Shown in pieces: positions 6,001 through 25,937 of a DNA stretch of 64,000 bases. The notes below the pieces were generated by a model. It was not told where the DNA came from. It searched no databases and saw only the letters and a program-made list of their open reading frames with translations. Within the stretch, counting starts at the first letter, position 1, and the number at the start of each line of letters is the position of its first letter. Source of the stretch: Promethearchaeota archaeon (GTDB lineage: Archaea; Asgardarchaeota; Lokiarchaeia; Sigyniarchaeales; SOKP01); assembly GCA_048937405.1 (NCBI GenBank), contig JBHLNF010000003.1, positions 128,001 through 192,000 on the forward strand. Direction: 5' to 3'. A program made the translations under genes and the position numbers.

Positions 6001-9000
6001 AGCTACGGCTTCCAGAAATTTAATAAGTCTTACAGTGATTCGGTTCGGTTGATTCACAATGATGAAGAGCACCAGGATTCAATATTAGATACTCAGGAAA
6101 TTCCATTGATCACTACCAAATTGAATGAACCTTCCTTATATGTGTCAATGGACCCCTCGGATGAAGAAACTATTCTAGAATTATATAACCTACTTATAGC
6201 CTATAATCCTGAATTAAACTTTACTATAGTACTTGATCCGATAGTTGTAAATCAGATAGAAGCATTTAACAATGATTTTAATACACTTAGTGTCGAGTTT
6301 TATTATGTAAAACATGATATGGGAGTCTATTATTCAGATTATATTGAAATTCCGTTGAATTATAGTGAATTTGTATTAGATCTTGAAGAAGATGGTAGTT
6401 ATCGGATTAATTATAATAAAGATCTGTTTGGACTATATTCTGATTTTGGAGTTTCGTCAATGGATATATATATTTCAATTTCACAGGTGAGCGAGGGATG
6501 TAATTTCATTCCATATGTAATCATTGAAGATTTTGATTATCTCAGTGATGATCATTTTATAGAAATGTATGATAGAATACCAAGAGACAGTAATAATAAT
6601 ATAGATGTAAAGGCAGTCATTGGAACTCCTCATTATTTCCAAATATTTACCGAGCCTTTACGAACAAGTACCTTGTATAATGTATCATCTCCTTTCGATC
6701 TTTTAGAAAACTCTATAGTAACTGTCGGATTGACTGATCTACCACATTCTAGCTTAGTCTCACTGAATAATTATGAGTTTTCTTATTTAGGATCATCAAC
6801 ACCAATTGTTGTTAATGATGATGATTTCAACATGATTACTAACCTTGGATTATTTACTAATACTTATAATATTGAAGACTCTATTGTTCAGGATGGATTT
6901 GTCGATCTTTATTATGGTTCAGGAACAGAAGTGGACGGGTCAAAAGAGTATGATATTAAGATGAACATGTGGCCGTTGAACGATGTTATTGACTATACAT
7001 CAAATGTTTCTAATCAAATTATTGAATCATGGGAAAACTCATTGAACTTTACTTCCCAATTCTTAACTACTGATGAAATCACAGTATCAGGAACGGTTCT
7101 ATATCATCAGATATTTAACTTGGTTTCGGATGATACAGTAATCGGGGAAAATGAAATAAATGCCCTATTTGACGGTTATGATGTACCACATGCGATGCTT
7201 GGATTACGCCTTCCAGATGATATACAAATTGCATATGTCGGAACGGTTGGCAAACCATATGATTATTACCTATCTGTACAAGGTTTCCCTATCGGAAATC
7301 ATAAAACGAGCCACTGTATAAACTTGACAACTGGAGTTATCGACTCATTTGCATACAGTGAGAGTGTGATGATAGAAGATGATCACTATTCTATTGAATA
7401 TTTAGATAATGGAAGTAAGTATATCTTAATCTATGTAAGTAATTCTTCATTATATGCTGAAAATGATGAAATAATTGTAGATTATTGGGCATATCATACA
7501 TTTACAGAAGGAATCGATTACGAGATTCATGAAGATCCTGATGATCCCTATATGTCCGCGATCACTTGGAACCTTGAATATAATAATGTAAATGACTTTA
7601 AGATGCACCCTGATTTATCTACACAAACATCCTATACCATTGAATTCTCTGCTTTAGAATGGAAAGATGCAGGTGATAATTACGTATTACAACATAGTGA
7701 TGAATTTATTTTTCAACCATTAACCAAGACAAATATCTCTCTGTTATATGAAAAAGGAGATACCGAAAAAATGTTTAACATCCTCTATTATGTGCCCTTA
7801 GAGCGGTTCCCAGCACCCGACTTATTCACTTCTGTTGCTGTGAAGATATGGGATGGGAATGATATAAATTCATTGCAACTTTATTCTAATTTTAGAGCTG
7901 AATATATCCTTTCAGATACAGATTGCAACTGGATGTACTATCTAAATTTTACTGAAGTACAAAAAGATATTTCGATTGAACATCAAGGATTTGAAATATA
8001 CCCAGATACATCGGTATTAATAGAGGTGCAATTCAATTCTACTGTCATAAAATATCCATTGACATATACCCCATTTAACTACGATTATATAGAATCAACT
8101 CACGAAGTATACAACATTAACATCACAGTGGGAGAACTCGGCACCTATACCTCAAATGTGGATTCATTCTTTGATAAATATGTTATTCAGATCAAAGATA
8201 ACTATATCTACTTAAATGATACTGAAATAGATCCTCATACTAAGATCACCGTTAAGTATCGCCATAAATTACAGCCAGGGTTGCTTGATCGTAAGCATTT
8301 AGTAACTGTAACATATCCGTGGACAAATACTTTTACCACAATCGCAAGTGATATCACTTCTGTGGAAGACCTAGACACCGCCACATCATATAGAGAGAAA
8401 TACAGGAAATTATCGGGAAGCTCAATTATCGCACCCTTTGATTACTCCTTATCACTAGATGATATTTATACCCTTTATTTGAGTTATCGGTTGAATCAAC
8501 GGGACATCATTGAAGAAACATTTACATTTGAACCAGCAAAAGTGTGTAAAGATGGTACATATAATTATACCTATATGGATCACGGTATTGATAAGTATAT
8601 GGATGATGTCGTCATAGATGGGCAGCATTCAATCACTATCTATTATTATGATGAATGGGGACGTATCCAAACAGTAGAGGAAGAATGCTATACTGTAGAT
8701 TCGGTCAATAATATAATAACAATGCTACCAAGCGGTAGTAAGAATCCAATTCTCCAGAATGCTGTCCCTGAATTTTACGTATCATATCTTCCCGAAGGAA
8801 ATGATAAGAAATTCGAGAATTACGAATTTACCTACGACCCAAATAGAGAATTAAAAGATACCATTGAGGTGAGTAATTGGGAAGTCATCAATGGAAAAAG
8901 ATTAGATACAATTCCTATCTTTGAAGCACCGTATTTCATGGATGAGAGTGTAAGTACTCATGAAAATATAGTATGTTATGCTACACAATTAATGTCGTAT

Positions 9001-12000
9001 ATCAATACAACAACAAAATTACGATTTAATTTAAATGATGAACTTTTTGGATATGATACCGATCTTTTGGCAGATATACAGTCTGGACAGATTACCAACC
9101 TGCACATACGGACAGGTATTAGTAATTACGAGAGTATCGAGAGTCTTACTGTTCGACTCTTTAATACTACTCAACAAATTGAATCTGATCAAGTTTTCAC
9201 CATTGAAGAGCTTCTTAAGAGTAATTTCGTCATTAATATAGTATTACCATCCTACCACCATAATTTACAATACATTGAATTTGATGCGACTTTTACGGAA
9301 CGAGGTGAGTATTCAAGTGATAATGATAAAGGTATTACTCGTGTTGAATATATTGAATGGGATGAGCAATTAACTACTGTGGGTTCAAACGGATATAAGG
9401 TGATGGAATATGTACTTGGGTATGATCTTATAGAAAATACAAATATCTATCTTTACAATGATGTGTTACAATACCTCAAACTTCCTGATGGAATTTCTTT
9501 TGAATACACTCTCAAAGTGGATGCCTTTGAAAACATAATGTATGTCTTAGAAATTCCCGATGTGTATGTTAACCCAGATGATTCTAGTGAGAATCGCACC
9601 TTTGCAGATGGGGACATGCTTATTTTACGTTATAGCTCTCCCCCTAAAAAAGAAATTGGAATTGCAGTGGGTACGATGTACTTTGAAAAGGAGCAGTATG
9701 AGATGTCTATCCCAATCGCTGAAGTAATGTTGATTAATGCTTCGAATACCTTTAGTTATGATGAATTTATAAGTCCCTACTATTACAACATTCCTCTAGA
9801 AGTAACGCCGTTTGATACCGAATTTTCCAATTCTTTTAAGGCGGTTGCAATTGAGTTGGATATCTCAACATTAGCGGCATATAATGTGAGCAATGCTATC
9901 GAGTTTTCGAATATCATATTTTCTGTACCCGATCCTTCATATGAATTAACTATTGATCAAGTGGTTATTACTAGGAAAGATCATGGAAGATCAGACCATG
10001 AATATGTTGAACAGAACATCTGGAGATATACAGAGCTAGAAATGTTTGAGTCAGACGTAGATCCCAGTGATGATGTGTACAATCCAACATTTACTGAAAC
10101 ACCGATATTTTACAATGATGGCGGTGATAAATGGTTAAAGTATCTGGCGTTGTATGACGGTGCCGCTACATATTATGCGGGATTACCAGAAGGACAAGAT
10201 CAAGATCAATATCAATTACACTGGTCTCAACAATACAGTAATTTCACCTGGAATCCATCATTTGATAAATTTAAAGAGATATTTGGCATGCAGTATGAAT
10301 TACCTATGAGTATTGAACCAAATAGCTCTTTATATCTTGCCTACTGTACAAACACATCGTGGATGGAACCAATATATTTGGATTATAGTAATATAGACCT
10401 GAATTCTATTGCAGTAGTGTATGAGGGCGATACCTTTTCATTAGAGAATCGGTATTATTATTCTGAATTAGACAGAAATCTTACGGAACGACTGTACTAT
10501 GATTATGAAGTAGATCAGTTTTACAGCGATTCATTTACTGTATACAATACAGTGTCAACATATACCCATGAGTTCGATCTTGGCAATTTTACCCTTGAAA
10601 ATGATTTCATTAATGTGAGTGTGTATAGTATAAAAGGAATATATGCAAATTTCACTGATGTTACAATAGAAAATGATACAATCAACTATGAGGTGTACTT
10701 TGATAAGGCTGCAAACAATATTACCATTATAGACAAAATATCTGGAGATGGGGTCTTAAACCAGTTTGATCTAATTACCGTCATATTAAACTTTTCATAT
10801 GGACCTATTTCTACAAGCTCAAGCATCGAACTTTCGCACATGTTTAACAATTCTTATTTATCAGATCCTACGGCATCATTTTATGATTTACTTTCAATAT
10901 CATTTGAATATGTTGATGATCTTGAATTCGTGTTATTTAATGAGGATTACAGAACTATTACTACCTCAAATACTTTGTTTACTTCGATTGATTTTACAAG
11001 AAGTAGTGAGTTGGGTATAGATAAAAAACTCAATGGGTATGATACAAGCGTGTTCCTGAACTTTAAGATATTTTATGATCCATATAATGTGATTTATGAA
11101 GCGGATTTAGACGCTGATGGGAACATAGATTATCTACAAGAAATAGATATAAACAAAGATGGAATCACGGATATTAGAAAATTCGGAATCCAAGATGGGG
11201 AGTATCCTGAAGACATCATATGGCATACTATCATTCAAAATTATAAGACGCATGAATCATATGTTGATAAGCAAAAACAATCGAAAGCAACGAAATGGTT
11301 CGATCTAAATGATGATAGTTATTCTGAAATAGACTGGGGAGATCCAGGTATCTGGGCAATGATTTCACTAGCGATAGCTGGAATAGCCTTGTCTGGAGGG
11401 GCAACAGCTGCACTTGTTATCCCACCGATTGCAGGGGAGATCATGGTTTCAAGAGTAGATTACTGGGCAAAGAAATCAATAACACACGAAATGACTCAGC
11501 ACTATGATGTAAATACTGTATATCAAAGTGTAATAGTAGATGAAAATAAAGATGGGTATGCAGATACGGAAGTTACTTACGAACATATTGATACAGTAGT
11601 AAATTACGAATCAATAGACATTGAAACAACAATCATTGCTGCTAAACCTTATGGTTGGACAACGTATCTCTTGGATTATGTAGAGAGAAGTTTTAAGGAA
11701 TTTTTTGTAGGAGAAATAGAAGATAATGTGTTTAATGAAGAATTAACAGAAGAAATATTGAGTGATAAATCACTTGCAGTGCAGAAGTACGGAAGCACAG
11801 GAGAAACCTTGTTTAATACATTTGGAAAGGTTTCAAAAAACACAACTGTACTATACCGAGAAGAACGTATACGAGAAACAATTACTATTACGGATTGGGA
11901 GCAAGGAAAAATTAAAGAAACAAGGATTTACACAAACGATTTTGATGACCACATTACAAATTACGAAACATTTACGATAAAAGATCTCTACTCAGGGAAC

Positions 12001-15000
12001 ACACAGGTGGTAGAACTTGAGACTCACAGAATTCCAGATGAAGTGTCTATTGAAAAGAAGCATATTGATGATATTACTTGGGAAAATGATAAAATACCAG
12101 AGCAGTTCGATACAAAGATCACGATATTAGAAGACGGAACAACAGAAAGGAAAAACATCAATGAGAAACAACTCACGATCATTATTCCAAACAGGTTCAG
12201 TCTGTATAACGATATCTACAAGGGTAAATATAATAAGGATTTAGTTAAAAATGACACATTTACAATAACTGGAGTGGTTATTAAACCTATCGATGGGCAG
12301 GTGTATTACACTTCTGATATAGATCTGTATAAGGCTGGAATGGCCCAAACACAAGGATTCTATCTATATTACGATAGCGATGAAAACGGTTTTTATGAAA
12401 CCGTGTATGTACTCGATGAAGATCCGACGAATGATGGATCATATATAGTAATAGCAATCGGTTATAATTATGACGGAAGCCACGAATTTTCACCATATAA
12501 TCAGAAAACCGTTCGTACCTATGTAGAAAAAGATGATGAATTGGCAAGAAAGCCTTCCTTCAAAATAGGGTTCAGAAGGTACTCTTTCTCAAGGATTATG
12601 AGAGATGACAATCTATTTTTGAGTGATAATGATGGATTAGAAGCAAAAGATATGATATTTGAAATTTACCGATTGACATCATATAAAGGTTCAAATCCAG
12701 AGTTCTTTTATGAAGTCAAACAACGAGAGTACAGTCGAACAACAAACATTTTCGATAAATCATACTGGTCTGATGTAGCTGAACAGGTATTTATGTCAAC
12801 TGCAGCTGGCACTATCTCGGTGGTTGTTGGGGCAGCGGTGTTCGGATGGATAACGGGTGCTACATTAGGTTTTGGCGTTGCAGCTGGTAAGGTGGCACAA
12901 GAATTAGCTTCAATGCTTACCTACTTTGCGGTATATTCGATAATGAGTAAATATTTCATGGATGTCAAAGAATGGAAGAGCAGGCATCAAGAACGTGCCG
13001 TTACATTCTATCTTGAGGGATCTGAAATCAATAAACCGAAGTATCTAAATGACCGTACGAAATACGATGATATAGACGAGGATAGTCAAGCGGCTGCGGT
13101 AAAAGGTCATCCAGGCGGATACTATACATTAGTACGGGGTGGTCAGTTAGGATCAGAGTATCTTGCAGAAGCTGTAGTATCACCGAAAAATTCACGAAGA
13201 ACTAATGAAGGGCTAATTAATTACTATACCTATGGAGCTTGGACAAATGATCCATTTGTCTATGTTGGATTGAACTACGATGAGCAAAACTTAGATTATC
13301 TGCTACTTACTAGTGAATTATACTCCTACAATGATGAAGAGTATTACTCATATCGTGTTGGCCCAGGATTTGTAAGCATTCAGGATGGAAAAGAATATAA
13401 TGAGTATAAATACAATACTCTCGGATATTTAGAAAAAGCAATTGCAGAAGAAACAAATGGAGCGTTAAATGCAATTCTTCCTACGTGTGTAGGCGGAAGA
13501 CCAGAATATCTATTCATTGATAAAAATTCTGATTTGTATCAACTTGTGCTTCCGCAATCTCATTTATATCAATCCCTTGTTGTGAATCCTAATGTCTATG
13601 ATAATAATAATTTTGCGAACGGCATTCTTGATGTGGATATTGACCCGTCTGGCATAAAAGGAATAAATCCTTATGAAATGACTGTTATCGAACAACTCTT
13701 ATATAGTGCGAAGATACCGTTACATAACTTTAATTATGAAATAGTTAGTACCGTATTATATATACGGGATAAGAATGGTAATCCTAAAGCTGATGTAGAA
13801 CTAACCCAAGAAGTTGATTATTTGATTGATGAAGGTTCTCTTTATCTTTTAGCTCCCATTTACGAACTTCTTGCGCGAGATTCCAAGTTTGAAGAGTATA
13901 TGAATGCAAGAGCATCTGGATATTACTTCTCAATAAGTATTGAATTCAAACGGATAATACCAGATGATTCAGATGAAGATCACAAGATAGCATTGCAACA
14001 GGCAACATCCTATATTATCATGGAGTATTTCAACCAGTATGAATTTGCAACAACCACAGCTCGAATGACTGCAGAACTTGGATATACAGTACGTCTCACT
14101 GAAGTATCAACCGCCTTATCAGTAGTTGCAATGTATCTGAGTAAAGGATTAACCAAAGGTTTAGAAGAAAAATTCCTTGCAAAATCAACACTAACGGCCT
14201 CACAAACAGTGTCTAAGGCACTAACAGTAAAGAATCTATTACTTACCATGTTAAAAGAATCATTATCAGAAGTAATAGAAGAAACGATCTGGGATGCATA
14301 TATTGAACAATGGGTTAAAAATTACATTGAAGAAACGGGTGGAACAGCACAAATGGAATTCTGGTTATCTTCTATTTTAACCTCATTGAGGGAAACAGCG
14401 TTCGGTGCTGGTGATATATACAGGGGAATCCGTCAGGAGGTCCAATTACAGACCCAAATAAAGGCGTTTTCTCAACTTGATCCAACTCTACAGAATTTCA
14501 TGAGCGAGTTACGTCTACAAAATCCTGGTATCAGTGATAAACAATTGCGTATACAATATAGAGCTGATTTTGCTCAACTCCTCGCTGAAGAACAGCAAAA
14601 ACAAACCCAAAATAACAATCAAAAAGCACAAAATAAGAGAAGTTATAAAGAAGTCTTACGTAAAATTCCAACAGCACTGTTAAAAGGTATAATGGGTGCG
14701 ATGTTTATTTTCAACCTTGATGCATATGTAAAAACTTTCATCGGAGTTCTTGGCACTTCGGTGACATTAACCCCGATAAAAAATTACATGACTAAACAGC
14801 ATCAAAAACGAATAAATCCAGGATTATCTCTTGATGAGAAGCATCCAGTTAATGATATTGATCTAAATAAGCCAGCATCTCTTATCTTCGACCTAGAAGG
14901 TCGTCAAAAATTAATGACAGATAGAGATCTTGTCCTTCTTTCCTATTCGGCAAAGTTGCTTGATCCAAAAGCAATGGTCGATAGACAATTCGATAAAAGT

Positions 15001-18000
15001 TATAATACACTACAACTGGAATATAAACCAACTGCACAAACAGTCACTAGTAATACATACCAATTAGAAAAAGCAAGACAAGGATTACTAATTCAAAAGA
15101 AATTATATGATACAGGTAAAACTGGAAGAATCGAAGAAACGACTCTAGATGTTGAAGAGGCTTATCGTGTATCACAACAAGTTGTTGATGTAGAAGTTAT
15201 AATTGATGATGTTCAAATGAATGTATTTACGCCACAATTATACTCAAGAGAAGCAATATATTTATATTTATGGAGTCAAACAAGAGATCCTACTATAGTC
15301 TCTCTTCCTAGAAGGGCCAGTATTGAAGCCTTAAAACAAAATATTATCCGTAAGTTTAATCTTAATTTAGCTACCAGGACAGATTCACTCGATTCAATAA
15401 CCGTCTCCAATGATTTTGTAGTAGTTGATTTTGACATTAATCGAGTATATGATATAGATAATTTTGCGACTGTGGGGGAAATAATTGATGCCCATCCAAA
15501 TTTCAGAATTATGAGGACTATAAATCTTGAACCAAATACCCCTATTACAACTGTACGCGATTTTAGAGAAATTGAATATTATTCTTCAACACAAAGAAGT
15601 GGTACATATTTAAGATTTGGAGAAATTAATCCAGATGATAACACACTTTCCCCTATAGAATCATTACCAGAAACCCAAGCGGGAAGAAGAACTGCAGACG
15701 TACTTGAACATAGAGGTGGAGGAAATGAATTTATAAGACGCTTAATTAGAAAGATCACTGGCGGTATAAGAGGAATTTTTAAAGGTACTGAAACAACCCA
15801 GAGAGTTCTTAATCAACCCGAACTACCTCTATTCGTAACTGAATTACAACGGGCGTCTGATGATATCCTGTATTTTAACCCTAATACCCCAAATACTGAT
15901 CGTCAAGTTACTATTCGACAACAACTCGATTTTGTAAGAGATTTCATTAGAGATGAACTTGTTATAGTATTACGAGAAAGATTAGAGCTACTTGGAGTTG
16001 CATCTGAGGTACACTCGAATGATATGATTGAAAAAGTCACAGAAATTATACTTCAGATATATGATGAATTTTACATACATCAATACGAAGCACATCAACA
16101 ACTTCTTGGAAGTGATCAGAGAAATCTTAACCTACTTGATAAAGAAGTACGGTTAAATTGGGAACGTGTAATACAGAATAACTTACTAGCTTATATAATT
16201 GACTACTTCCCAGCAGAAAATGGTGTTTTAATCAGGAATTTTAATTCAAGAGATCAAAATTTGCACAGGAATATTTTTGTATCGGTTTTGGATAAATTAG
16301 AAGATATTAATGATAGGAAGGAAATCATTGATCGACGACGTTTATTTTGTATGTCAGTTATAGAGAGTATGCTGATTTCAAACGATATTGAAAGAATAAA
16401 TAACGATCCAGCTGGAGCAGAAATAACTCGGTTCCTTGGACCTACGGCTAGAGGGAGGAATAGAGCGTTTTCTGAGCTTTTTTTCGCTTTATTTGGAAAA
16501 TTCAGTTCAGATACCGAGATCAACACAGGTGCTTTACAGGAAACTCATGATTTCATGTATTTGTTACCAAAAATTATTCTAGGGTTGTTTTTCGAACATG
16601 TGGGAGGAAATATACAAGATATTAACTATGAATATTCCTATAACAAATTTAGTTATGCTGATGCAACCTCTATTTTCAACTTAGTTAGGGAATTATTTAA
16701 CGGAGGTAGTCTTCTTCATGCTGAAGGAGATATACGAGCGGAAGATGTGTTTTCAGATCATATGTTTACATTGATTAATTCACACTTTAAACATCAGATT
16801 ATTAATATAATCTCTAAGAATCTTCAAGATGGAGGTCATGCTAGAACTCGAATGGATCTCATTGAAAGTGACTTATGGAAGGCTCTTAATTCAATTAAAA
16901 ATCTCGCTGGGACAGATAAATTAGAAATGGATAAAATATTAGCAAAAATAGTAATTGATATGCAGGCACTTAGAGGAATGGACAGTACAGGGAGAGAGAA
17001 TACTGAATTCAGTACAGTAGAATCCCTTTTAAGACACAGATTTAATGATGTTTCTGCTAAATCTATAATCAGATCAACAGAGTGGAGAAATCAAATTAAT
17101 ACTAATAGTAAGTCAGATATTTCTGAGATATATTCACAAAGATGGATACATTCACGAATATTAGGAATCGCTAGTAATATTATATATGAGGGTGGGATAT
17201 TTCATGCCGACCGTTATGCTGCTATATATGATCTGCTAACCAGCACTCGAGAAATTATAAGTCAAACTGGCACTCTTAATACTAATCCATGGCGAGAAAG
17301 ACGTGGAGGTACCTTGTATAGAGTTAGACCATTGGGAACCTGGACACCAGGCACAATTTATCAAAATAATCAAATTGAAGTACTTATTGAAATATCACCA
17401 ACCAACAAATTCGAAATAACTATCAACTTCCTTGAAGATGGTGGGAATGTTGGGAAAAATCTTGAACGTGGGGATACTTTCCTACAACAATCTGGGTATT
17501 GGATTTCATCTTGTCTTAATTTCGTTGAAAATATATTGGTTACTCCAACTAGTATTGCTAATTATCTTAGATTATTAAGAAATGATTTTGAAGATCGTTT
17601 AGGGACATCATATCTTCATTGGGATGAAACTGGGGAATATACAACAGGATTAAATCTGGTTGCTGGGTGGAATAGTGGAGTGTTAATTGAGGGTAATTTG
17701 AATATAAACAATATACCTAATAGTATAGATACAAGTAATGCTGAATTTGATCCCATTAGTGGTAATCTTATTGGATCTTACATTCCAATGTCCCGAGAAT
17801 TAGATGACAATACTATCCAATATGGCTTATTGCGTGTAGAACAGGATAGTGATGGAGTCTACTGGCATATTCATCCCTCAAATACTCTTGTGGGTACAGA
17901 TTGGGCTCCAATTTTGATAGAGAGAGAAGATGGATATATTCCGTTTTTTGTTCAGGTTGAATTAAATGTAAGAGAAAGAAAAGTCACTTATTTAGGATTT

Positions 18001-20304
18001 AGTAACAATCGATTAGATAGTTCTGGTTTCTCTTTTGATAGCGATTGGTTCATGTCAACAGATCCAGAAATACAAGCGGCATTAGAAGAAGCTATGTCAA
18101 GTGGAGGGTTTACAGAATATACATTATATTTTTCATGGCATGGAAATGAAATAACTGGATGGTCGATACATACGAATATAGAGAATATGTATTTAGCTTA
18201 TGGTCATTATAGAGACTCTTATAATAGATTTAAAAATGTAAGAAGAAGTAGGCAAGATCCCTATCAGGATCCCGGATTATTTGAGCTTAAAAGATTAATT
18301 GAGTATGAAAGATATCTACGATATGGCGAAATAGCTCGAGTAGGTGTACAAGCGGAAATAAATAAGGATGGAACTATATATTTTACTGATTCAACACTCC
18401 AAAAGGAAAACACGAAGTTGATATTTAAAATGGCAGAAGATCAGTTAATCACAGCCACAACAACAGAGATTTCCGAAATAAGGAACTATTTCTCATTGAT
18501 AAATGCTTATTATTTTGGAGCTTCTGATCCACCAATAAATATTATACATGCAGATGACGTTGACATTTATTTAAGCGCACTTGAACAATCAGCAAAAAAG
18601 ATCCTTGGTGATACAAAAACAGCGGAATTGATGAATTCCATATTTTTCAATGAAATGAGGGACGGTCAATTACGATTTAACAACAAACAGATGCTGAAGA
18701 ATTGGGCAAAGGGTATGTTGCTGTTATTACAAAACTATTATAATGATCCAAATAGAGAAGTAATTCTACGTCTTGAAGGATTACTTAACCACTTTGAATT
18801 GAATAGTTTAACATTCACGGATAGTAATGAACTCTTTCAAGAGTCAGATAAAAACACTTTTCAAAAATTACAAACATTGCTTTGGACAATATTTGGACCA
18901 TATACTTACTTAAAGATGCTAACAGGTGGAATAACATTTAAAGATGGCAAAACACGATATTGGAATTTACCATTTTATGATTTTCTGCTTGCGATTAATC
19001 ATAACCGTTTAGGATTTATTCATCGTGGAACTTCGAGGTTGGAGAATCAACTAGTATTAAAACGTGGAAATCCAGGAATGGATTCAACTACTTTTACATA
19101 TCAAGATTATTTGACCTGGATTTTCGAATTTTATACGATACATCCATCCATTTGTATTAAAATTGCAGATAATACTGGTAAAATTATCGAGAATGAACAT
19201 TGGATAACTCCAATCCCTACTTTACCAATGGTAATGATATCTGAAGAACTTTCAAGGATCCAACATGATGTTAGCATATTTCAAGAAAGTGCTGATCCCA
19301 CAATAAGAATACAGAGTATTACGACACTATCGCAGAATTTTATACTTTTGGATTCTGTTATATACAGAATAATTACTGATCTCACTTATGATACTGATCA
19401 AAATAATCGTATTTCTACTCTTAAAAGTGGTATTTTTAATCCATCGCTTTATGTTGATAGATATAAAAGTGGTGATTATTGGGAAATAGATAAAGATATT
19501 ATATTTAAAGGACCAAAAATATATCATAATGGATTTAATTATTTTGTCCTTGGACAACAAGATAAAACGGGGATGTCATATTGCCACTATACAGCTATTA
19601 TGAATGGGTTAGTAACCTCATTAGTACGAAATGGAGGGGCTATTCGTTGGCTAGAAAAACTATACATTGATAATGCTTTTATCGATGGTATTCCTATCTT
19701 AGCAGAGCATTTTCCAACAAAAACTGAATTTATTAATGCATTACACAATGAGAAAACCAGACAAGAAGTTTGGGATTTAATAATTGAATATATAACTCTT
19801 TATAACAAGCCACCTATAGAAAAATTTAATTTAGATGCTTTTGGTATGTCTCTTAACTTCTTATTTCAAATAAATGAACGATGGGATGATTATAATCTAC
19901 AAGACTTTCCAGATTATGCTCAATATATTCAACTTGGAAAAGGATGGGTAATAAGACCTACAAATGAATTATCACCGATAATAGAAAAAAAATTAATGGA
20001 ACAAGGTATAAAAATAATTAAAAATGAAAAAGATTTAATCTCTGAGATAAAAGAGAGGATAGATAACCAAGAGATTTGGTATATTGATACTTTAGGATTT
20101 AGAATTGGAAAACCAAATGATGGAACTCCAAATGATCAACATGCATTAACTATATTTCATTATCGTGAAGAAGAAGACGGAGTTTGGTTTTTAATTGGAG
20201 ATTCAGATGCACCTTTTCTTCATAATCAAATTCAAGGTCAAGGTGTTTGGGTGAAATCTCATGTAATTTGGAAAACTTTTAATAAAGGTAATACTATAAA
20301 TTAG
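1..20304 (+). CDS. Giant (>6,700 aa) surface/secreted multidomain protein, 5'-truncated by the window; adhesin-like stalk, LamG, Ca-binding loops, hydrophobic hairpins, C-terminal papain-like peptidase
   Basis: Frame 1 is open from base 1 (IFKDVGQFNGAPVE) into the 43..20304 ORF, so GTG43 is probably not the true start. The N-terminal ~3,700 aa are acidic, Tyr/Asn-rich and dense in N-x-S/T sequons; hydrophobic segments at ~11350, ~12790-12945, ~14100 and ~14660-14770. Confidence 0.9.
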   Translation: MFKDVGQFNGAPVEVFINGFEYGTAVSNGTHYVVLFGQENNEDTLLAYSKSLISDYIHSTINPLSHVSWEFSNDDLFGVIQHVLVDQPITIVNPLTYNATAIMQLDTIYDQTFRMAKYVRPGKEAYYCNATTGELLYLDLGYDYMILQDGTVKFPDGSFIFDLYENHSSEVQDGFIYFEYSASDVYDQLTLSNAEGLFINFTMPDLYYNHTTIDTLTVRLNDFSGKSFAKIFYDIDLREFFQEDVKSKYEQTIFGLSKMMTIPLYIDFREFILSNTDAMFDMSLIESISFEIVDSARWPGSFMKTYEEEGYTVLNLPYQRVGIQDIKLYNLISDNVDDQDGFVTSEIEVRCPEYHDIFATDTFNIAKMNVEFTDVSVICDGVNINYYNRSIDVEFSDRIELYMHYDSTSGVIPLYDLVNLPIYLVNASNVDQAFSFDSLHHITKEDVNAPDGFYSDYYYAKFAVPKELGEYNLTFNSLGTPMHNLIIGGISEVAMWSFGENDTAFDLIGDKDGMIVGATQVDGKVGRALYFENSNDDHVEIQPVFDDYQDYFTFAAWVNAESLSTYHSLFGEYTGQYARNHIYIGTNGEVVFDHNLPAGGEATSINNLITIGSWIHVAVVKDNDTVYFYKNGEQFGSGVSHAEKYTSGNPTISGLGGRYDGGWDYGFDGTLDDIRLYSRSLSEDHIKFLYHNGYGRSQRLNTLVQFSVNVTQESLNEEPIYLENDRYELEYGESLILSGAVLDNDIYIIEDEVHEYNYQEALGDGTTTSTTTHTLDIIAPFGDDSFIDKNEFAIYYISDTLEKLPLYVKMDGKLFIDTEIISIEKLPEIVYVNDKYVLNIHWETNPITGCHINYNTMLLISYKMIRGHPITPMSYSSEDAYGHDKKENLHEIPFARYDIITDSWITKDDYTESFFIDKQFIVEGNVTVNSVLIEGPTYFDGQEIKLGIIGIDNVYVNKSNADVYVQLDPQNYTWFIDASGRLNVTYLNFETGDVWFVEYCSYYPLELSHSLKKSSSYLTSIMIHSSNDTSQYHTFTTSEYINATDGYAIYLLDLYNTAFSLGFDIGDEIVVKYHAPLTRKVDLSCQVLLLLQDNNSNYRPIDMIQIDSYGMFKYDQQFTNDGPLSLPLNSKTLVNLKLAYLPLQVYNTSAGELVNISYSDPTVGSIYPYKSSSKWVKSFKIMTIQDQVKLEFVDFELQPIVVNQKFIEERDYKFTYNPLYALEEGEEYTALNLDVMTREDYTFTFKLTNSEDKPINNSIVWLHIGFMPKSVSGFIDDGLEIEELGGISPYYEILGTEIGTTKGPGMGPNNMFGRPLTYEVEYKSLNRSAYGPYIWTFGTTDVFGKVSFDLSFDNEYLSDFSTIFGTVSGIKSLDDISLYIRAFTTEFRWQDFIIHSPEQYICSQNGIIFNSSSNILREYDLMQLKFQDSTYAEGVIELHKKDIALGCSDRISYDLPYTDEFQSAQLENLRLFVYVTEANVIGGNIGTTVESLDGLHEVLELEPTPVNVLAQNYSYYALLQILDPAGNNVKQAYLPIQPSGDGGYIEIANWTMEEILNTAGPGVSTIQIQVQETEYYKASPVVRVPLEIRPPNWLRFGEKNMQIDLIDPFIASWGSAFDGSGLMPFESNYPHLIGTLWIDPHFENGEELSIEDYIEIGLTCTSFNESGGISGVTDLREPIMFRPGNYEGFLTFDVGLGPEDAFLMGTECMLNLTFDIDYIEQEVYNESRDINIYLLDLRMVNNPSANNPNIIWSLYEDKFKDIAFPVKNELLSISTETGILLLGGISGTEAYGVEEYFLYDPDQVTYATDPENPQLSLLGLDNVEPLAVIGTNGTETNYIFVKNVDWQEGTTMTEIEFLGNDVPNNDSEFKVIYQYNFDFGSNYFGNVTLGASNNVSKSYIEFDLTGGFLPSSEDSRSSMFVRYFDNFVGNNIDKNFNLTYTIENADLSDFVIYNEEELNASFTGVIKKIDNGALQIELTDIPANGQKFNVSYGIRSQYELSYGFQKFNKSYSDSVRLIHNDEEHQDSILDTQEIPLITTKLNEPSLYVSMDPSDEETILELYNLLIAYNPELNFTIVLDPIVVNQIEAFNNDFNTLSVEFYYVKHDMGVYYSDYIEIPLNYSEFVLDLEEDGSYRINYNKDLFGLYSDFGVSSMDIYISISQVSEGCNFIPYVIIEDFDYLSDDHFIEMYDRIPRDSNNNIDVKAVIGTPHYFQIFTEPLRTSTLYNVSSPFDLLENSIVTVGLTDLPHSSLVSLNNYEFSYLGSSTPIVVNDDDFNMITNLGLFTNTYNIEDSIVQDGFVDLYYGSGTEVDGSKEYDIKMNMWPLNDVIDYTSNVSNQIIESWENSLNFTSQFLTTDEITVSGTVLYHQIFNLVSDDTVIGENEINALFDGYDVPHAMLGLRLPDDIQIAYVGTVGKPYDYYLSVQGFPIGNHKTSHCINLTTGVIDSFAYSESVMIEDDHYSIEYLDNGSKYILIYVSNSSLYAENDEIIVDYWAYHTFTEGIDYEIHEDPDDPYMSAITWNLEYNNVNDFKMHPDLSTQTSYTIEFSALEWKDAGDNYVLQHSDEFIFQPLTKTNISLLYEKGDTEKMFNILYYVPLERFPAPDLFTSVAVKIWDGNDINSLQLYSNFRAEYILSDTDCNWMYYLNFTEVQKDISIEHQGFEIYPDTSVLIEVQFNSTVIKYPLTYTPFNYDYIESTHEVYNINITVGELGTYTSNVDSFFDKYVIQIKDNYIYLNDTEIDPHTKITVKYRHKLQPGLLDRKHLVTVTYPWTNTFTTIASDITSVEDLDTATSYREKYRKLSGSSIIAPFDYSLSLDDIYTLYLSYRLNQRDIIEETFTFEPAKVCKDGTYNYTYMDHGIDKYMDDVVIDGQHSITIYYYDEWGRIQTVEEECYTVDSVNNIITMLPSGSKNPILQNAVPEFYVSYLPEGNDKKFENYEFTYDPNRELKDTIEVSNWEVINGKRLDTIPIFEAPYFMDESVSTHENIVCYATQLMSYINTTTKLRFNLNDELFGYDTDLLADIQSGQITNLHIRTGISNYESIESLTVRLFNTTQQIESDQVFTIEELLKSNFVINIVLPSYHHNLQYIEFDATFTERGEYSSDNDKGITRVEYIEWDEQLTTVGSNGYKVMEYVLGYDLIENTNIYLYNDVLQYLKLPDGISFEYTLKVDAFENIMYVLEIPDVYVNPDDSSENRTFADGDMLILRYSSPPKKEIGIAVGTMYFEKEQYEMSIPIAEVMLINASNTFSYDEFISPYYYNIPLEVTPFDTEFSNSFKAVAIELDISTLAAYNVSNAIEFSNIIFSVPDPSYELTIDQVVITRKDHGRSDHEYVEQNIWRYTELEMFESDVDPSDDVYNPTFTETPIFYNDGGDKWLKYLALYDGAATYYAGLPEGQDQDQYQLHWSQQYSNFTWNPSFDKFKEIFGMQYELPMSIEPNSSLYLAYCTNTSWMEPIYLDYSNIDLNSIAVVYEGDTFSLENRYYYSELDRNLTERLYYDYEVDQFYSDSFTVYNTVSTYTHEFDLGNFTLENDFINVSVYSIKGIYANFTDVTIENDTINYEVYFDKAANNITIIDKISGDGVLNQFDLITVILNFSYGPISTSSSIELSHMFNNSYLSDPTASFYDLLSISFEYVDDLEFVLFNEDYRTITTSNTLFTSIDFTRSSELGIDKKLNGYDTSVFLNFKIFYDPYNVIYEADLDADGNIDYLQEIDINKDGITDIRKFGIQDGEYPEDIIWHTIIQNYKTHESYVDKQKQSKATKWFDLNDDSYSEIDWGDPGIWAMISLAIAGIALSGGATAALVIPPIAGEIMVSRVDYWAKKSITHEMTQHYDVNTVYQSVIVDENKDGYADTEVTYEHIDTVVNYESIDIETTIIAAKPYGWTTYLLDYVERSFKEFFVGEIEDNVFNEELTEEILSDKSLAVQKYGSTGETLFNTFGKVSKNTTVLYREERIRETITITDWEQGKIKETRIYTNDFDDHITNYETFTIKDLYSGNTQVVELETHRIPDEVSIEKKHIDDITWENDKIPEQFDTKITILEDGTTERKNINEKQLTIIIPNRFSLYNDIYKGKYNKDLVKNDTFTITGVVIKPIDGQVYYTSDIDLYKAGMAQTQGFYLYYDSDENGFYETVYVLDEDPTNDGSYIVIAIGYNYDGSHEFSPYNQKTVRTYVEKDDELARKPSFKIGFRRYSFSRIMRDDNLFLSDNDGLEAKDMIFEIYRLTSYKGSNPEFFYEVKQREYSRTTNIFDKSYWSDVAEQVFMSTAAGTISVVVGAAVFGWITGATLGFGVAAGKVAQELASMLTYFAVYSIMSKYFMDVKEWKSRHQERAVTFYLEGSEINKPKYLNDRTKYDDIDEDSQAAAVKGHPGGYYTLVRGGQLGSEYLAEAVVSPKNSRRTNEGLINYYTYGAWTNDPFVYVGLNYDEQNLDYLLLTSELYSYNDEEYYSYRVGPGFVSIQDGKEYNEYKYNTLGYLEKAIAEETNGALNAILPTCVGGRPEYLFIDKNSDLYQLVLPQSHLYQSLVVNPNVYDNNNFANGILDVDIDPSGIKGINPYEMTVIEQLLYSAKIPLHNFNYEIVSTVLYIRDKNGNPKADVELTQEVDYLIDEGSLYLLAPIYELLARDSKFEEYMNARASGYYFSISIEFKRIIPDDSDEDHKIALQQATSYIIMEYFNQYEFATTTARMTAELGYTVRLTEVSTALSVVAMYLSKGLTKGLEEKFLAKSTLTASQTVSKALTVKNLLLTMLKESLSEVIEETIWDAYIEQWVKNYIEETGGTAQMEFWLSSILTSLRETAFGAGDIYRGIRQEVQLQTQIKAFSQLDPTLQNFMSELRLQNPGISDKQLRIQYRADFAQLLAEEQQKQTQNNNQKAQNKRSYKEVLRKIPTALLKGIMGAMFIFNLDAYVKTFIGVLGTSVTLTPIKNYMTKQHQKRINPGLSLDEKHPVNDIDLNKPASLIFDLEGRQKLMTDRDLVLLSYSAKLLDPKAMVDRQFDKSYNTLQLEYKPTAQTVTSNTYQLEKARQGLLIQKKLYDTGKTGRIEETTLDVEEAYRVSQQVVDVEVIIDDVQMNVFTPQLYSREAIYLYLWSQTRDPTIVSLPRRASIEALKQNIIRKFNLNLATRTDSLDSITVSNDFVVVDFDINRVYDIDNFATVGEIIDAHPNFRIMRTINLEPNTPITTVRDFREIEYYSSTQRSGTYLRFGEINPDDNTLSPIESLPETQAGRRTADVLEHRGGGNEFIRRLIRKITGGIRGIFKGTETTQRVLNQPELPLFVTELQRASDDILYFNPNTPNTDRQVTIRQQLDFVRDFIRDELVIVLRERLELLGVASEVHSNDMIEKVTEIILQIYDEFYIHQYEAHQQLLGSDQRNLNLLDKEVRLNWERVIQNNLLAYIIDYFPAENGVLIRNFNSRDQNLHRNIFVSVLDKLEDINDRKEIIDRRRLFCMSVIESMLISNDIERINNDPAGAEITRFLGPTARGRNRAFSELFFALFGKFSSDTEINTGALQETHDFMYLLPKIILGLFFEHVGGNIQDINYEYSYNKFSYADATSIFNLVRELFNGGSLLHAEGDIRAEDVFSDHMFTLINSHFKHQIINIISKNLQDGGHARTRMDLIESDLWKALNSIKNLAGTDKLEMDKILAKIVIDMQALRGMDSTGRENTEFSTVESLLRHRFNDVSAKSIIRSTEWRNQINTNSKSDISEIYSQRWIHSRILGIASNIIYEGGIFHADRYAAIYDLLTSTREIISQTGTLNTNPWRERRGGTLYRVRPLGTWTPGTIYQNNQIEVLIEISPTNKFEITINFLEDGGNVGKNLERGDTFLQQSGYWISSCLNFVENILVTPTSIANYLRLLRNDFEDRLGTSYLHWDETGEYTTGLNLVAGWNSGVLIEGNLNINNIPNSIDTSNAEFDPISGNLIGSYIPMSRELDDNTIQYGLLRVEQDSDGVYWHIHPSNTLVGTDWAPILIEREDGYIPFFVQVELNVRERKVTYLGFSNNRLDSSGFSFDSDWFMSTDPEIQAALEEAMSSGGFTEYTLYFSWHGNEITGWSIHTNIENMYLAYGHYRDSYNRFKNVRRSRQDPYQDPGLFELKRLIEYERYLRYGEIARVGVQAEINKDGTIYFTDSTLQKENTKLIFKMAEDQLITATTTEISEIRNYFSLINAYYFGASDPPINIIHADDVDIYLSALEQSAKKILGDTKTAELMNSIFFNEMRDGQLRFNNKQMLKNWAKGMLLLLQNYYNDPNREVILRLEGLLNHFELNSLTFTDSNELFQESDKNTFQKLQTLLWTIFGPYTYLKMLTGGITFKDGKTRYWNLPFYDFLLAINHNRLGFIHRGTSRLENQLVLKRGNPGMDSTTFTYQDYLTWIFEFYTIHPSICIKIADNTGKIIENEHWITPIPTLPMVMISEELSRIQHDVSIFQESADPTIRIQSITTLSQNFILLDSVIYRIITDLTYDTDQNNRISTLKSGIFNPSLYVDRYKSGDYWEIDKDIIFKGPKIYHNGFNYFVLGQQDKTGMSYCHYTAIMNGLVTSLVRNGGAIRWLEKLYIDNAFIDGIPILAEHFPTKTEFINALHNEKTRQEVWDLIIEYITLYNKPPIEKFNLDAFGMSLNFLFQINERWDDYNLQDFPDYAQYIQLGKGWVIRPTNELSPIIEKKLMEQGIKIIKNEKDLISEIKERIDNQEIWYIDTLGFRIGKPNDGTPNDQHALTIFHYREEEDGVWFLIGDSDAPFLHNQIQGQGVWVKSHVIWKTFNKGNTIN
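1474..2080 (+). other. LamG / concanavalin-A-like lectin domain within the giant protein
   Basis: Typical motifs: 'VAMWSF', 'GKVGRALYF', 'FTFAAWVN', 'WIHVAVV...FYKNG', 'FDGTLDDIRLYSRSLSEDHIKFLY'. Confidence 0.9.
19531..20304 (+). other. C-terminal papain-fold (peptidase C39-like) cysteine protease domain of the giant protein
   Basis: Q-Q-x7-C at a helix start ('GQQDKTGMSYCHYTAIMNGL'), then 'HALTIFHY' and 'FLIGDSD', matching the Q/C/H/D order of papain-like peptidases. Confidence 0.6.
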
Positions 20305-20364: not shown

Positions 20365-21222
20365 ATGCTATTTGTAATTTTCAACATATTATCAAGAGAA
20401 ATTTACTTCAAATCATATTTTGAAAGTCATTACATAGAAGATAATATATCAAAAATTATTAAGATGTTTAACAATCGAGTATATTTAAAAAATGAGGAAA
20501 AATACCAATTAGCTTTTAAAATTAGGGAAAGTGTTGCTTTTGGAGGAATAAGAGCCTATAATGGTGGTAGCTACAACGGTCGTGATATTATTCCATGCAA
20601 ACAAATAAATCTACAGGAAATATTAAATTTTATACATGAGTTATCAGAAATTATTACTGAAGAAGAAATTAATCTCTTAACTACAAATCAATTTAAATTG
20701 ACAAAAGAAATAATTTTACAAAGATTAAATATTAAAAATATTCATAATAAATCTAAAATATTAATTGTTGGAGGGGGAGGTGCAGGGGTAAGTTCCATAA
20801 TGTTTATGAATTACGGTCTTACATTAACAAATAATCTTGGAACAATAATTTATCATGTAACAACAAATATAAATGTGAAGAATGAAAAACTCATGTTTTT
20901 TTTTACTCCATATAGATCTGATTTATATCATCATCAAATTAGTCTTTTTCCTGCATTTTCAAGTATTATTTATGTTGAAGATAGTACAAGAAAAGAAGTT
21001 TTTAATGAATATAATTACATTTTAAAAAAAATAAAAGAAGAAAAGAAAAGGAAAAAAGAAAAACGATTTTTAATTATTGCAAATAAACAAGATTTACCAG
21101 GAGCAATGGAGCCAGAGAAAATCGAAGAAATTACAGGGATAACAACAGTCGGCTTTTCTGCCATTGATCCTGATGCTCCTAAACATTTAGAAAAAATAAT
21201 TTCAGATTTTTTGAAAAAATAG
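20365..21222 (+). CDS. Arf-like small-GTPase-fold protein with N-terminal extension (possibly longin-like); degenerate P-loop
   Basis: 'KILIVGGGGAGVSS' (G1, Lys->Val), 'IIYVEDST', G4 'IIANKQDLPGAM', G5 'FSAI'; no DxxG G3 motif. Confidence 0.75.
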   Translation: MLFVIFNILSREIYFKSYFESHYIEDNISKIIKMFNNRVYLKNEEKYQLAFKIRESVAFGGIRAYNGGSYNGRDIIPCKQINLQEILNFIHELSEIITEEEINLLTTNQFKLTKEIILQRLNIKNIHNKSKILIVGGGGAGVSSIMFMNYGLTLTNNLGTIIYHVTTNINVKNEKLMFFFTPYRSDLYHHQISLFPAFSSIIYVEDSTRKEVFNEYNYILKKIKEEKKRKKEKRFLIIANKQDLPGAMEPEKIEEITGITTVGFSAIDPDAPKHLEKIISDFLKK

Positions 21223-21413
21223 ACACTTTTTATAAATTTTTATTTTATGTATTTTTATGTATTTTTAAATATTCTTGATTACTATTCAAACAAAAATTGC
21301 AATAATTAAAATTCTTTATAATCAGTCTAATGAGTGATTAAATCATAACGACAATAAACTATCCTCCCAAGAAAATATTAGAAAAGAAGGATTATGTATA
21401 CATTATACTATGG

Positions 21414-22289
21414 ATGTTGTACAATAATGAAGGATGTAGATGGTTAGATTTTCGTCAAGAACCGCTTGAAATTCCTACAGTTAGTTTATCTGAACATTTA
21501 AATAAGTTAACACGTAAAGGATTAGTAGAAAAATATACTAAAGGGTATTATAAGATAACACATAAAGGGAAAGAACGTTTTAATGAAGAGAAATTTGATT
21601 TAAATTATTATAATGAATATTATAATTATAGACTTTTGATGACCAAGGTTTTAAGTCCTGATCGAATCTTTGATATTGAGAGTAATGGAGATTCTAAGAC
21701 TGAAAAGATATTAAAATTTTTAGTATTAGGAGAAGCGGGAGTAGGAGTAAGAACCCTATTAAACTCAATATATCTTAAACTTGGTTTCACAGATTATGAT
21801 TATGATCATTATAATTCTTCAGTACATACAGAAATACCAAAAGATTGGGAAGGTTATGATATCGATATTCATGGTTTTGAATTTGAATTTCATTATACGG
21901 AGTATTTAGAAATCAATGAAGATATATACTTACTTGATTATTGGGATTGTGAGAAGGATTATCGTTTTCATAAAATATTTCAGATGTTTAAAGAGAAGGT
22001 TCTTGTGTTGTTTATTTTTGATTTATCACGACCAGGAACTTTTGAATATCATATAAAGTACAATTCATGTCCTTGGTGGAATTTAAGTAAGCCCTCGATT
22101 TTATTAGTTGGAAACAAACTAGACTTAATCAAGGACACAACTACAATTGATCGGAAAAAATATAAGGATTTTGTTGAAAAAGAGGGTTTGAGGAAGTATA
22201 TAGAAATATCAATGAACAATTTTAATGGGTTAATTGAAGAAATATCTAAATTAATTCAAGAGAAAATAGGTAAATCCTTTAAATTTTAG
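21414..22289 (+). CDS. Winged-HTH plus Rab/Ras-like small-GTPase-fold fusion; degenerate P-loop
   Basis: N-terminal wHTH ('SLSEHLNKLTRKGLVEK...YKITHKG'); 'LKFLVLGEAGVGVRT' (Lys->Val), 'YWDCE', 'FIFDLSRPGTF', 'LVGNKLDL', 'EISM'. The frame extends upstream to ATG21330 but with TAA at 21339-21341. Confidence 0.75.
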   Translation: MLYNNEGCRWLDFRQEPLEIPTVSLSEHLNKLTRKGLVEKYTKGYYKITHKGKERFNEEKFDLNYYNEYYNYRLLMTKVLSPDRIFDIESNGDSKTEKILKFLVLGEAGVGVRTLLNSIYLKLGFTDYDYDHYNSSVHTEIPKDWEGYDIDIHGFEFEFHYTEYLEINEDIYLLDYWDCEKDYRFHKIFQMFKEKVLVLFIFDLSRPGTFEYHIKYNSCPWWNLSKPSILLVGNKLDLIKDTTTIDRKKYKDFVEKEGLRKYIEISMNNFNGLIEEISKLIQEKIGKSFKF

Positions 22290-24013: not shown

Positions 24014-24031
24014 AGGAGGAATGAAAATATA

Positions 24032-25867: not shown

Positions 25868-25937
25868 CTTTAACTTTTTAAATATAAATTTAGCAAATAA
25901 AAAATAAAAAAAAAACAGAAAATAGAGGTTTTATACA

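Follow-up and report, generated by a model that had tools for sequence, protein, structure and literature searches.

The window analysed here is a 64,000-nucleotide (nt) stretch of the genome of a Lokiarchaeia-type Asgard archaeon (Promethearchaeota archaeon, assembly GCA_048937405.1, contig JBHLNF010000003.1, positions 128,001 to 192,000 of the forward strand). It contains two adjacent genes, here called gene 1 and gene 2, whose products are predicted to adopt the small-GTPase fold and which both carry valine in place of the lysine of the phosphate-binding loop (P-loop). Gene 1 begins 60 nt after the end of a giant gene, and gene 2 lies upstream of aclB-aclA, the genes for the ATP-citrate lyase subunits. 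An earlier note on this DNA had singled out the pair as pseudo-GTPases maintained by selection. The features of the locus are collected in Table 1.

Lysine-less P-loops at the locus

Alignments placed valine in the lysine column of both genes (GGGGAGVSS in gene 1, GEAGVGVRT in gene 2), as the note had read it. Its two accompanying observations were also borne out: the canonical DxxG motif is gone from both genes and NKxD is retained (FFFTPYRS and NKQD in gene 1, WDCEKD and NKLD in gene 2). The valine codon is GTA in both cases, two substitutions away from either lysine codon, and simple AT drift is therefore not the explanation of the change. Contigs of three studies span both P-loops, together with an in-frame TAA upstream of gene 2, and showed zero differences. 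The assembly used here may derive from the runs of one of these studies; the agreement of all three at both P-loops rules out an assembly artefact.

The P-loop column was examined across the genome with a hidden Markov model (HMM) built from 53 small GTPases, to which 100 GTPase-fold open reading frames (ORFs) were aligned. Lysine occupied the column in 95 of them, four had a gap there, and a single one, gene 2, had valine. Gene 1 was too divergent for this HMM and was added by hand, bringing the set to about 101 ORFs. Genes 1 and 2 were the only lysine-replaced G-folds seen among these, and they are adjacent. With 10 neighbouring pairs among the 5050 possible pairs of 101 ORFs, adjacency would arise at random in about 0.2% of cases (P ~0.002, calculated post hoc).

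Judged by sequence, both genes encode pseudoGTPases, that is, GTPase folds without the P-loop lysine, the switch I threonine and DxxG(Q), on which the splitting of GTP depends, and to that extent the pseudo-GTPase claim of the note stands. The note had also taken the same substitution in two subfamilies as a joint signal of selection. This part does not hold: the residue in gene 1 is inherited and varies among valine, leucine and methionine within its clade, and the valine of gene 2 is unique to its lineage.

The upstream giant gene is a single open frame of 20,619 amino acids (aa) (G000:C13, frame end 148301). The part of it inside the window holds one Laminin_G_3 as its sole Pfam domain, and a search of 159 other genomes of the class with the last 1000 aa of the protein gave no homologue (E<=1e-10). 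The protein ends in a putative C39/papain-like peptidase tail of ~100 residues with the motif H...FLIGDSDAPF. On the other side, aclB-aclA and then another gene occupy window positions 22712-27131. The aclB product is 77-93% identical in 38 of 53 genomes of the genus, and the DNA upstream of aclB differed in each relative examined. In seven relatives neither the giant gene nor gene 1 nor gene 2 was found upstream of aclB. Since these relatives carry other genes there, unrelated and mutually different, the block from the giant gene through gene 1 to gene 2 appears, from this comparison, to be a species-specific insertion in a variable spot. Both genes are probably real and would belong to a species-specific island inserted upstream of a conserved aclB-aclA operon. 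A terminator scan of the stretch found no hairpin terminator; the promoter scan used a sigma-70 model, which is inapplicable to archaea.

Table 1. Features of the locus, in window coordinates
Feature	Position	Strand	Basis
Giant gene, 3' part, with putative C39/papain-like peptidase tail	1..20304	+	ORF call, tail homology
Gene 1, ORF of 285 aa	20365-21222	+	ORF list
Gene 1, N-terminal longin domain, residues 1-125	20365..20739	+	AF2 model, structural search
Gene 1, Arf-like G domain, residues 127-285, without Lys, switch I Thr and DxxGQ	20743..21222	+	Pfam, Foldseek, VIA
Gene 1, P-loop GGGGAGVSS, residues 136-144	20770..20796	+	Val142 codon GTA at 20788-20790, in the Lys column
Gene 1, switch II equivalent FFFTPYRS, residues 178-185, no DxxGQ	20896..20919	+	Alignment
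Gene 1, NKQD (21082-21093) to SAI (21157-21165)	21082..21165	+	Family alignments
Gene 2, in-frame ATG-AGT-GAT-TAA, stop 24 codons before the annotated ATG	21330..21341	+	Contigs of three studies
Gene 2, winged helix of the 'NYPP...IILWML' family; first 24 codons (21342-21413) upstream of the only start	21342..21590	+	Homology, Pfam HTH_34
Gene 2 as ATG-started ORF, 291 aa	21414..22289	+	ORF list
Gene 2, P-loop GEAGVGVRT, residues 106-114	21729..21755	+	Val codon GTA at 21747-21749
Gene 2, region with two lineage-specific insertions (~14 and ~10 aa), helix 1 to strand 2 of the G domain	21762..21899	+	Alignment to 14 members of the family
Gene 2, switch II equivalent WDCEKD, residues 177-182; Asp kept, Gly and Gln lost	21942..21959	+	Alignments
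Gene 2, NKLD (G4), residues 234-237	22113..22124	+	Alignment
Gene 2, C-terminus KSFKF-stop, aligning with KSYQVKF, the first RHH strand of relatives	22272..22289	+	Alignment

Gene 1 and its family

Gene 1 scored 47.9 bits (cut-off 22.3; E 1.4e-12) with the Pfam Arf family (PF00025) and had a weak match to SRPRB. In a phmmer alignment with Arf6, ggggagvss lay on GLDAAGKTT, which places the valine in the lysine column, and FFFTPYRS lay on WDVGGQDK. The Arf segment TIPTIGFN was aligned with IIYHVTT, and the switch I threonine is absent. NKQD occupies residues 240-243 and SAI residues 265-267. An AlphaFold2 (AF2) model built from 16 sequences (predicted local distance difference test score, pLDDT, 79.8; predicted template modelling score, pTM, 0.78) exhibited an N-terminal domain with the order b-b-a-b-b-b-a-a followed by a C-terminal G domain. 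The modelled G domain matched Arf1 and Arf6 (Foldseek E ~1e-9; VIA Z 15.7 to Arf6 over 145 residues), and the Asgard ArfR structures 8oum and 8oul were among its structural matches. The switch and interswitch sequence is unconserved and was poorly modelled (pLDDT <50 at residues 166-174).

Pfam and NCBIfam gave no match to the N-terminal 122 residues, and the fold was resolved only when the domain was modelled alone. Residues 1-125 then reached a pLDDT of 87.4 with the order b1-b2-a1-b3-b4-b5-a2-a3. When this model was compared with 48,161 chains by VIA-align, the top 26 matches were all longin domains or longin-containing subunits of GTPase regulators and adaptors, with Z 8.0-10.1 over 100-120 residues; these included CPLANE (10.1), MON1A-CCZ1 (9.9), BLOC-3 (9.7), AP2 (9.5), VAMP7 (9.3) and SRX (8.1). 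Roadblock and profilin ranked lower. An ESM Atlas search with the same residues was uninformative (best score 0.75, template modelling score at most 0.33).

An N-terminal amphipathic helix and an interswitch toggle are the hallmark of Arf and ArfR proteins (Vargova et al. 2024). Gene 1 did not show these hallmarks, its N-terminus being the 125-residue longin domain. It does have the arrangement of the longin-Arf/Rag-like fusions, with a longin fold N-terminal to the G domain in one polypeptide. The labels of the earlier note, Arf-like for gene 1 and Rab-like for gene 2, hold for the G domains and can be refined to longin plus Arf-like and to winged helix plus Rab-like, respectively.

A word-indexed search of 5.8 billion proteins returned 12 full-length homologues of gene 1 at 28-40% identity and, at greater distance, canonical longin-Arf proteins of 345 aa that read GVGKTT and WDFAGQEQ. 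An additional homologue, from genome G036, is longer and fused to leucine-rich repeats (LRRs). The family counts at least 14 members. It is present in 3 of the 160 genomes of the class, namely this one, G065 (whose member is identical to P0009) and G036, and so appears to be rare and patchily distributed. A scan of the genome collection with the family alignment gave partial G-domain matches only, and a scan of metagenomes gave three short contigs. Further fused forms of greater length (516-2000 aa) were looked for and not found, which is weak evidence.

No family member has DxxGQ or the switch I threonine. The lysine column reads valine in four members, leucine in three, methionine in one (P0006, which reads GM), threonine in one and lysine in five, including the LRR-fused protein of G036. 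Across the family, G136, G141, N240, Q242, D243, S265 and most of the last 50 residues do not vary, and conservation of K241 and A266 is at least 90%. A maximum-likelihood tree showed the family as monophyletic (support 100/100) against the canonical longin-Arf proteins of 345 aa. In it the eight members with valine, leucine or methionine grouped as a single clade (93/94), their terminal branches measuring 0.2-1.3 changes per site. By this tree, the lysine was lost once, in the eight-member clade, and a hydrophobic replacement was kept through deep divergence. Because this single lysine-less clade diverged deeply while its guanine-pocket motifs stayed fixed, the view that gene 1 is a pseudoGTPase maintained by selection rather than a decaying gene is well supported at the level of sequence. 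Gene 1 thus combines a retained fold, lost catalytic motifs and constraint, the features that define a pseudoGTPase; the same case is weaker for gene 2.

The guanine-plus-cytosine (GC) content rises within gene 1 from 0.23 in the 5' part to 0.32 in the last 150 nt, which hold the block from NKQD to the C-terminus. We considered an exchanged cassette as the cause and rejected it: the 3' part richer in GC is the same stretch that the family conserves, and constraint is therefore the simpler explanation.

The neighbourhood of gene 1 family members was examined in this window, in G065, in G036 and on the metagenome contig L042 (identical in sequence to L043). Leucine-rich repeats recurred in these contexts. 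The G036 protein carries them fused at its C-terminal end, a 477-aa LRR protein lies tail-to-tail with the family member in G065, and an LRR gene lies tail-to-tail with the member in L042/L043. The genes on L042 form a compact trio, with a tail-bearing ORF at 2-451 (+), the family member at 579-1412 (+) and the LRR gene at 1462-2421 (-). These contexts suggest LRR proteins, together with the peptidase-like tail encoded upstream, as candidate partners of gene 1.

A separate Arf-like ORF of 159 aa elsewhere in the genome (G000:C7:892539-893051), with equivalents in more than 20 genomes of the genus, showed G-domain matches that run 10-20 residues upstream across one in-frame TGA, found at a matching relative position in many of these genomes. 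This upstream extension may be alignment overhang.

Gene 2 and the Rab-like ribbon-helix-helix family

Gene 2 matched Pfam Ras at 31.7 bits (cut-off 21.6) and, by sequence, the structures of Rab32/38/14 and Sec4. In the census alignment GEAGVGVRT lay on GDAGVGKTS and WDCEKDY on WDFGGQE. The alignment also revealed a change that the earlier note had missed: the Mg-binding threonine has become arginine, so that a GVGKTT has turned into GVGVRT. There is no aligned switch I threonine, and the G5 motif is degenerate (EISM).

An exhaustive HMMER search among 1.8 billion representatives gave no end-to-end match to gene 2. The matches were split between winged-helix proteins with the pattern 'NYPP...DY.YIILWML' and Rab-like proteins with 41-43% identity to the C-terminal half. 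The latter belong to a family in which a Rab-like G domain is followed by a ribbon-helix-helix (RHH) domain (Pfam NikA-like E 5e-5, RHH_1 E 0.005), here called the Rab-RHH family. A literature search found no paper describing this architecture. Of 54 genomes in the genus, 23 held one such gene each, encoding 254-317 aa. The family P-loop is GA[SPAT]GVGK[TS], and all closest relatives of gene 2 read GVGK[TSY]. Switch II is WD-x-x followed by a residue other than glycine, with no glutamine (no DxxGQ); G4 is NKLD, and the degenerate G5 of gene 2 is common to the whole family. In four of five loci examined, the Rab-RHH gene (L058:1351-2118, L049-L059) lies beside a gene for a 786-aa glycyl-radical-type enzyme. 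The corresponding glycyl-radical neighbourhood of this genome is 170 kb from gene 2 on the same contig (G000:C13:312000-323400), and its slot is without a Rab-RHH gene. Gene 2 is the only member of the family in this genome.

In a tree with 20 Rab paralogues of its own genome, gene 2 nested with 14 Rab-RHH members at 100/100 support. It resembles them in the WD-x-x-nonGly switch II, in FDLSRP.TF, in NKLDL and in IDRKKY..FV.KEGL..YIE, and its C-terminal half is 38-44% identical to theirs. It differs from them in its valine and arginine P-loop, two insertions, the absence of the RHH domain, a winged helix at the opposite end, its location at another locus and a very long branch. The terminal branch of gene 2 is 1.77 changes per site, compared with 0.02-0.28 in its relatives, or about 6-100 times longer. 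No RHH remnant was found downstream of the gene.

The winged helix of gene 2 extends beyond its annotated start. Residue 1 aligns to about residue 29 of the winged-helix relatives, in which NYPP and DY.YIILW are conserved, and the 24 codons that precede the ATG supply the NYPP and helix 1 that the ORF lacks. With these codons included, the match to Pfam HTH_34 improved from E 0.022 to 7e-4, covering profile positions 5-74 of 80. None of the 24 codons is ATG, GTG or TTG, and they follow directly on the TAA. This situation could reflect loss of the start codon, a non-AUG start or a nonsense mutation. Two ORFs of the genome, of 850 and 658 aa, carry tandem 'NYPP' winged helices that are 44-47% identical to that of gene 2 (G000:C17:156449-156880; C22:19088-19510), and by this similarity they likely represent the source family of the domain. 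Relatives of the P0024 type have two NYPP winged-helix domains and tetratricopeptide (TPR) repeats. Another protein, P0038 (572 aa), has two tandem Rab-like domains, the first with a degenerate switch II, followed by a winged helix of MarR/ArsR type, and so also joins the GTPase fold to a DNA-binding domain.

The nearest relatives of gene 2 are 35-44% identical and synonymous sites are saturated, and a simulation of neutral decay was therefore used in place of a ratio of nonsynonymous to synonymous substitution (dN/dS). The G-domain codons of an orthologue were subjected to neutral, AT-biased substitution down to the observed 36% identity in 500 runs. Under this crude model (uniform sites, no insertions or deletions), a mean of 12.5 stop codons accumulated and none of the 500 runs was free of stops at the observed divergence; at 10% divergence, 7% were stop-free. 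Because no run remained open, most of the divergence of gene 2 appears to have arisen under selection for an open frame.

The claim of selection over decay therefore fared differently for the two genes. It is upheld for gene 1, where the eight-member clade keeps its pocket motifs fixed. For gene 2 it fails in part, given relatives that read GVGK[TSY] and a terminal branch of 1.77. The note had said that close orthologues retaining GK, together with neutral evolution of the two copies, would refute it. For gene 2 this is borne out in part, by such relatives and the long branch; its open frame still argues against long neutral decay.

Interpretation and comparison with known systems

We consider it probable that both genes are pseudoGTPases of differing age and status, with gene 1 conserved and gene 2 either remodelled or in early decay. 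The gene 1 family would descend from canonical longin-Arf-like GTPases; all of its members would have lost the switch I threonine and DxxGQ, and one clade would then have lost the lysine. Its protein would no longer cycle; a guanine nucleotide probably still occupies the pocket, or the shape of the pocket at least is preserved. As a static adaptor, it may use its longin platform and its conserved C-terminal face to dock partners, for which LRR proteins and the peptidase-like tail of the upstream gene product are the candidates. Gene 2 would come from the Rab-RHH family, already switch-dead with its lysine still in place. It would have relocated, lost the lysine, the Mg-binding threonine and the RHH domain, and gained an N-terminal winged helix. 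Its product would be a nucleotide-free G-fold module on a DNA-binding domain, acting as a remodelled regulator unless the gene is in early decay. For gene 2 the fold is suggested by homology and the constraint by the open frame. A complex prediction for the two proteins gave a score of 0.00, which is evidence neither way.

Several points weigh against this interpretation. The case for nucleotide binding by either protein is drawn from the retained motifs, and the adjacency statistic is post hoc. The partners of gene 1 are proposed from few contexts (three for LRRs, two for the peptidase-like tail); in the window itself the downstream neighbour of gene 1 is gene 2 and no LRR gene. The peptidase identity of the tail comes from sub-threshold Pfam matches in a relative and from a motif. 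For gene 2, several signs of decay are present (no upstream start, an in-frame TAA, a truncated RHH domain and no orthologue), and the simulation that argues for an open frame under selection is crude.

These signs of decay can be taken further. Gene 2 may be a young, decaying pseudogene, a relocated Rab-RHH copy whose valine has no function and which lies next to gene 1 merely as a by-product of the island's variability. The lack of an orthologue and a branch far longer than those of its relatives would fit this account, as would the loss of both P-loop residues, the two insertions and the truncated RHH domain. Moreover, the winged helix has its conserved first helix upstream of the only usable start and behind a TAA that is fixed in the contigs of all three studies. 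However, a frame of 315 codons is open in DNA of 28% GC; in the simulation no neutral run stayed free of stops at the observed divergence, and few did even at 10% divergence. The C-terminal half is still recognizably that of the family, with NKLD intact, and the exchange of an RHH domain for a winged helix, both of them DNA-binding, looks like remodelling and not loss. We regard decay of this kind as possible but unlikely.

A second alternative concerns gene 1, whose family may be a dedicated cofactor, activator or immunity-like inhibitor of the putative upstream cysteine-peptidase tail, by analogy with Arf-dependent bacterial toxin domains. This would be a specific version of the decoy or immunity role that the earlier note had proposed. 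Gene 1 begins shortly after the giant gene, and a similar arrangement was seen on L042. There, a family member 33% identical to gene 1 follows, 128 nt downstream, on an ORF with a related tail: the last 92 residues of that ORF share 34% identity (E 1e-7) with the C-terminal end of the giant protein. The two tails have in common the motif H...FLI[AG]DSDAPF, with its His and Asp; the L042 contig is cut, and the comparison covers these 92 residues. The L042/L043 tail showed sub-threshold matches to Pfam Peptidase_C39_2/DUF3335 (E 0.003-0.007). In addition, the structural neighbours of the gene 1 G domain include an Arf/MCF-like cysteine-protease effector complex (6ii6) and Arf6 with cholera toxin A1 (2a5f).

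The link is nevertheless confined to two loci, L042 and L043 being the same sequence, and the tail in the window had no Pfam match at E up to 1. The family members of G065 and G036 have no peptidase-tail gene upstream and no giant gene in their context. On L044, a 27-aa tail match at the contig edge on the opposite strand (E 0.07) was too weak to use. A role as peptidase cofactor is therefore doubtful, somewhat more so than the decay of gene 2. The co-occurrence with giant genes that the earlier note had suggested testing was not seen as such in the two other long contexts; what stands is the narrower association with a homologous peptidase-like tail upstream in two loci.

A more elaborate scheme, which we consider improbable, combines these elements. 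The gene 1 family would be a self-encoded Arf-like cofactor locked in one conformation that activates or restrains the upstream peptidase tail, with the LRR protein as a third partner, and gene 2 would be a recruited DNA-binding pseudoGTPase regulating the island. If true, the locked cofactor would give the archaeon its own version of the Arf-dependent activation on which some bacterial toxin domains rely.

It is very improbable that both proteins are working GTPases with a non-canonical P-loop, the function of the lysine being supplied otherwise, for example in trans by a partner: NKxD is kept in both genes and SA in gene 1, and IRGM proteins, which carry GX4GMS, are reported to bind GTP and to control further IRG proteins by means of nucleotide-dependent interactions (PMC2532785), but both genes also lack the switch I threonine, the glycine of DxxG and the catalytic glutamine, gene 2 additionally lacks the Mg-binding Ser/Thr, and Irga6 K82A binds GTP without hydrolysing it (PMC2532785).

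Taking both genes as pseudoGTPases, the IRGM proteins are instructive in another respect. Loss of the lysine alone does not exclude nucleotide binding, given the precedent of IRGM and Irga6-K82A (PMC2532785). Like genes 1 and 2, IRGM proteins have replaced the P-loop lysine by a hydrophobic residue, and they regulate canonical paralogues rather than switch themselves (PMC2532785). They differ in belonging to the unrelated IRG/p47 family, with a dynamin-like size, and in keeping the other G motifs, whereas genes 1 and 2 also lack G2 and G3.

The closest architectural parallel to gene 1 lies within its own lineage. Longin-GTPase fusions are a known architecture of Lokiarchaeia (Tran et al. 2024, PMC10933270), and the ArfL group of Klinger et al. 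2016 is cited in Tran et al. 2024 (PMC10933270) and Vargova et al. 2024. Gene 1 resembles the longin-Arf/Rag-like fusions in its N-terminal longin, Arf-like G domain and NKQD. This genome holds about six canonical longin-Arf copies (GFSGVGKTT, WDFAGQE, NKQDL), and the gene 1 family branches from them. In contrast to the canonical fusions, all family members lack the switch I threonine and DxxGQ, most lack the lysine, and the C-terminal helical extension of the 345-aa proteins is absent.

Two further systems share single elements with gene 1. The signal recognition particle (SRP) receptor, like gene 1, combines a longin-type fold with an Arf-like G domain, and SRX (1nrj_A, 2go5, 5ck3) and SR-beta (2fh5_B, 1nrj_B) were among the structural neighbours. 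SR-alpha and SR-beta, however, are two chains, SR-beta is an active GTPase, and the context here gives no hint of a relation to SRP. The ROCO proteins (LRR-Roc-COR) are comparable to the gene 1 family in their association with LRRs, which in the family form part of the G036 protein and are encoded next door in G065 and L042. Here, however, the LRR is C-terminal or encoded by a separate convergent gene, and the G domain is Arf-like and not Roc. Pfam found no COR domain in the G036 fusion or in gene 1.

No other prokaryotes are known to have sets of eukaryote-like small GTPases as large as those of Asgard archaea, this genome holding about 100, and it is rare for their regulators to be encoded next to them. 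What appears to be new here is a lysine-less family that keeps NKQD and SA, with its links to LRRs and a peptidase-like tail, and, behind gene 2, a family that joins the GTPase fold to a DNA-binding domain. Gene 2 and its parent family would indicate that small-GTPase folds can be wired directly to DNA-binding domains, an RHH in the family and a winged helix here.

In eukaryotes, pseudoGTPases such as CENP-M, the pG domains of p190RhoGAP and Rnd/RhoH combine a GTPase fold and degenerate G motifs with a role as scaffold or constitutive binder. Stiegler and Boggon are said to have classified the eukaryotic pseudoGTPases in 2020. Genes 1 and 2 differ from these in being archaeal and fused to a longin domain or a winged helix. 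The gene 1 family suggests that the pseudoGTPase strategy, familiar in eukaryotes, also evolved in their archaeal relatives, in this case with unusually concrete candidate partners.

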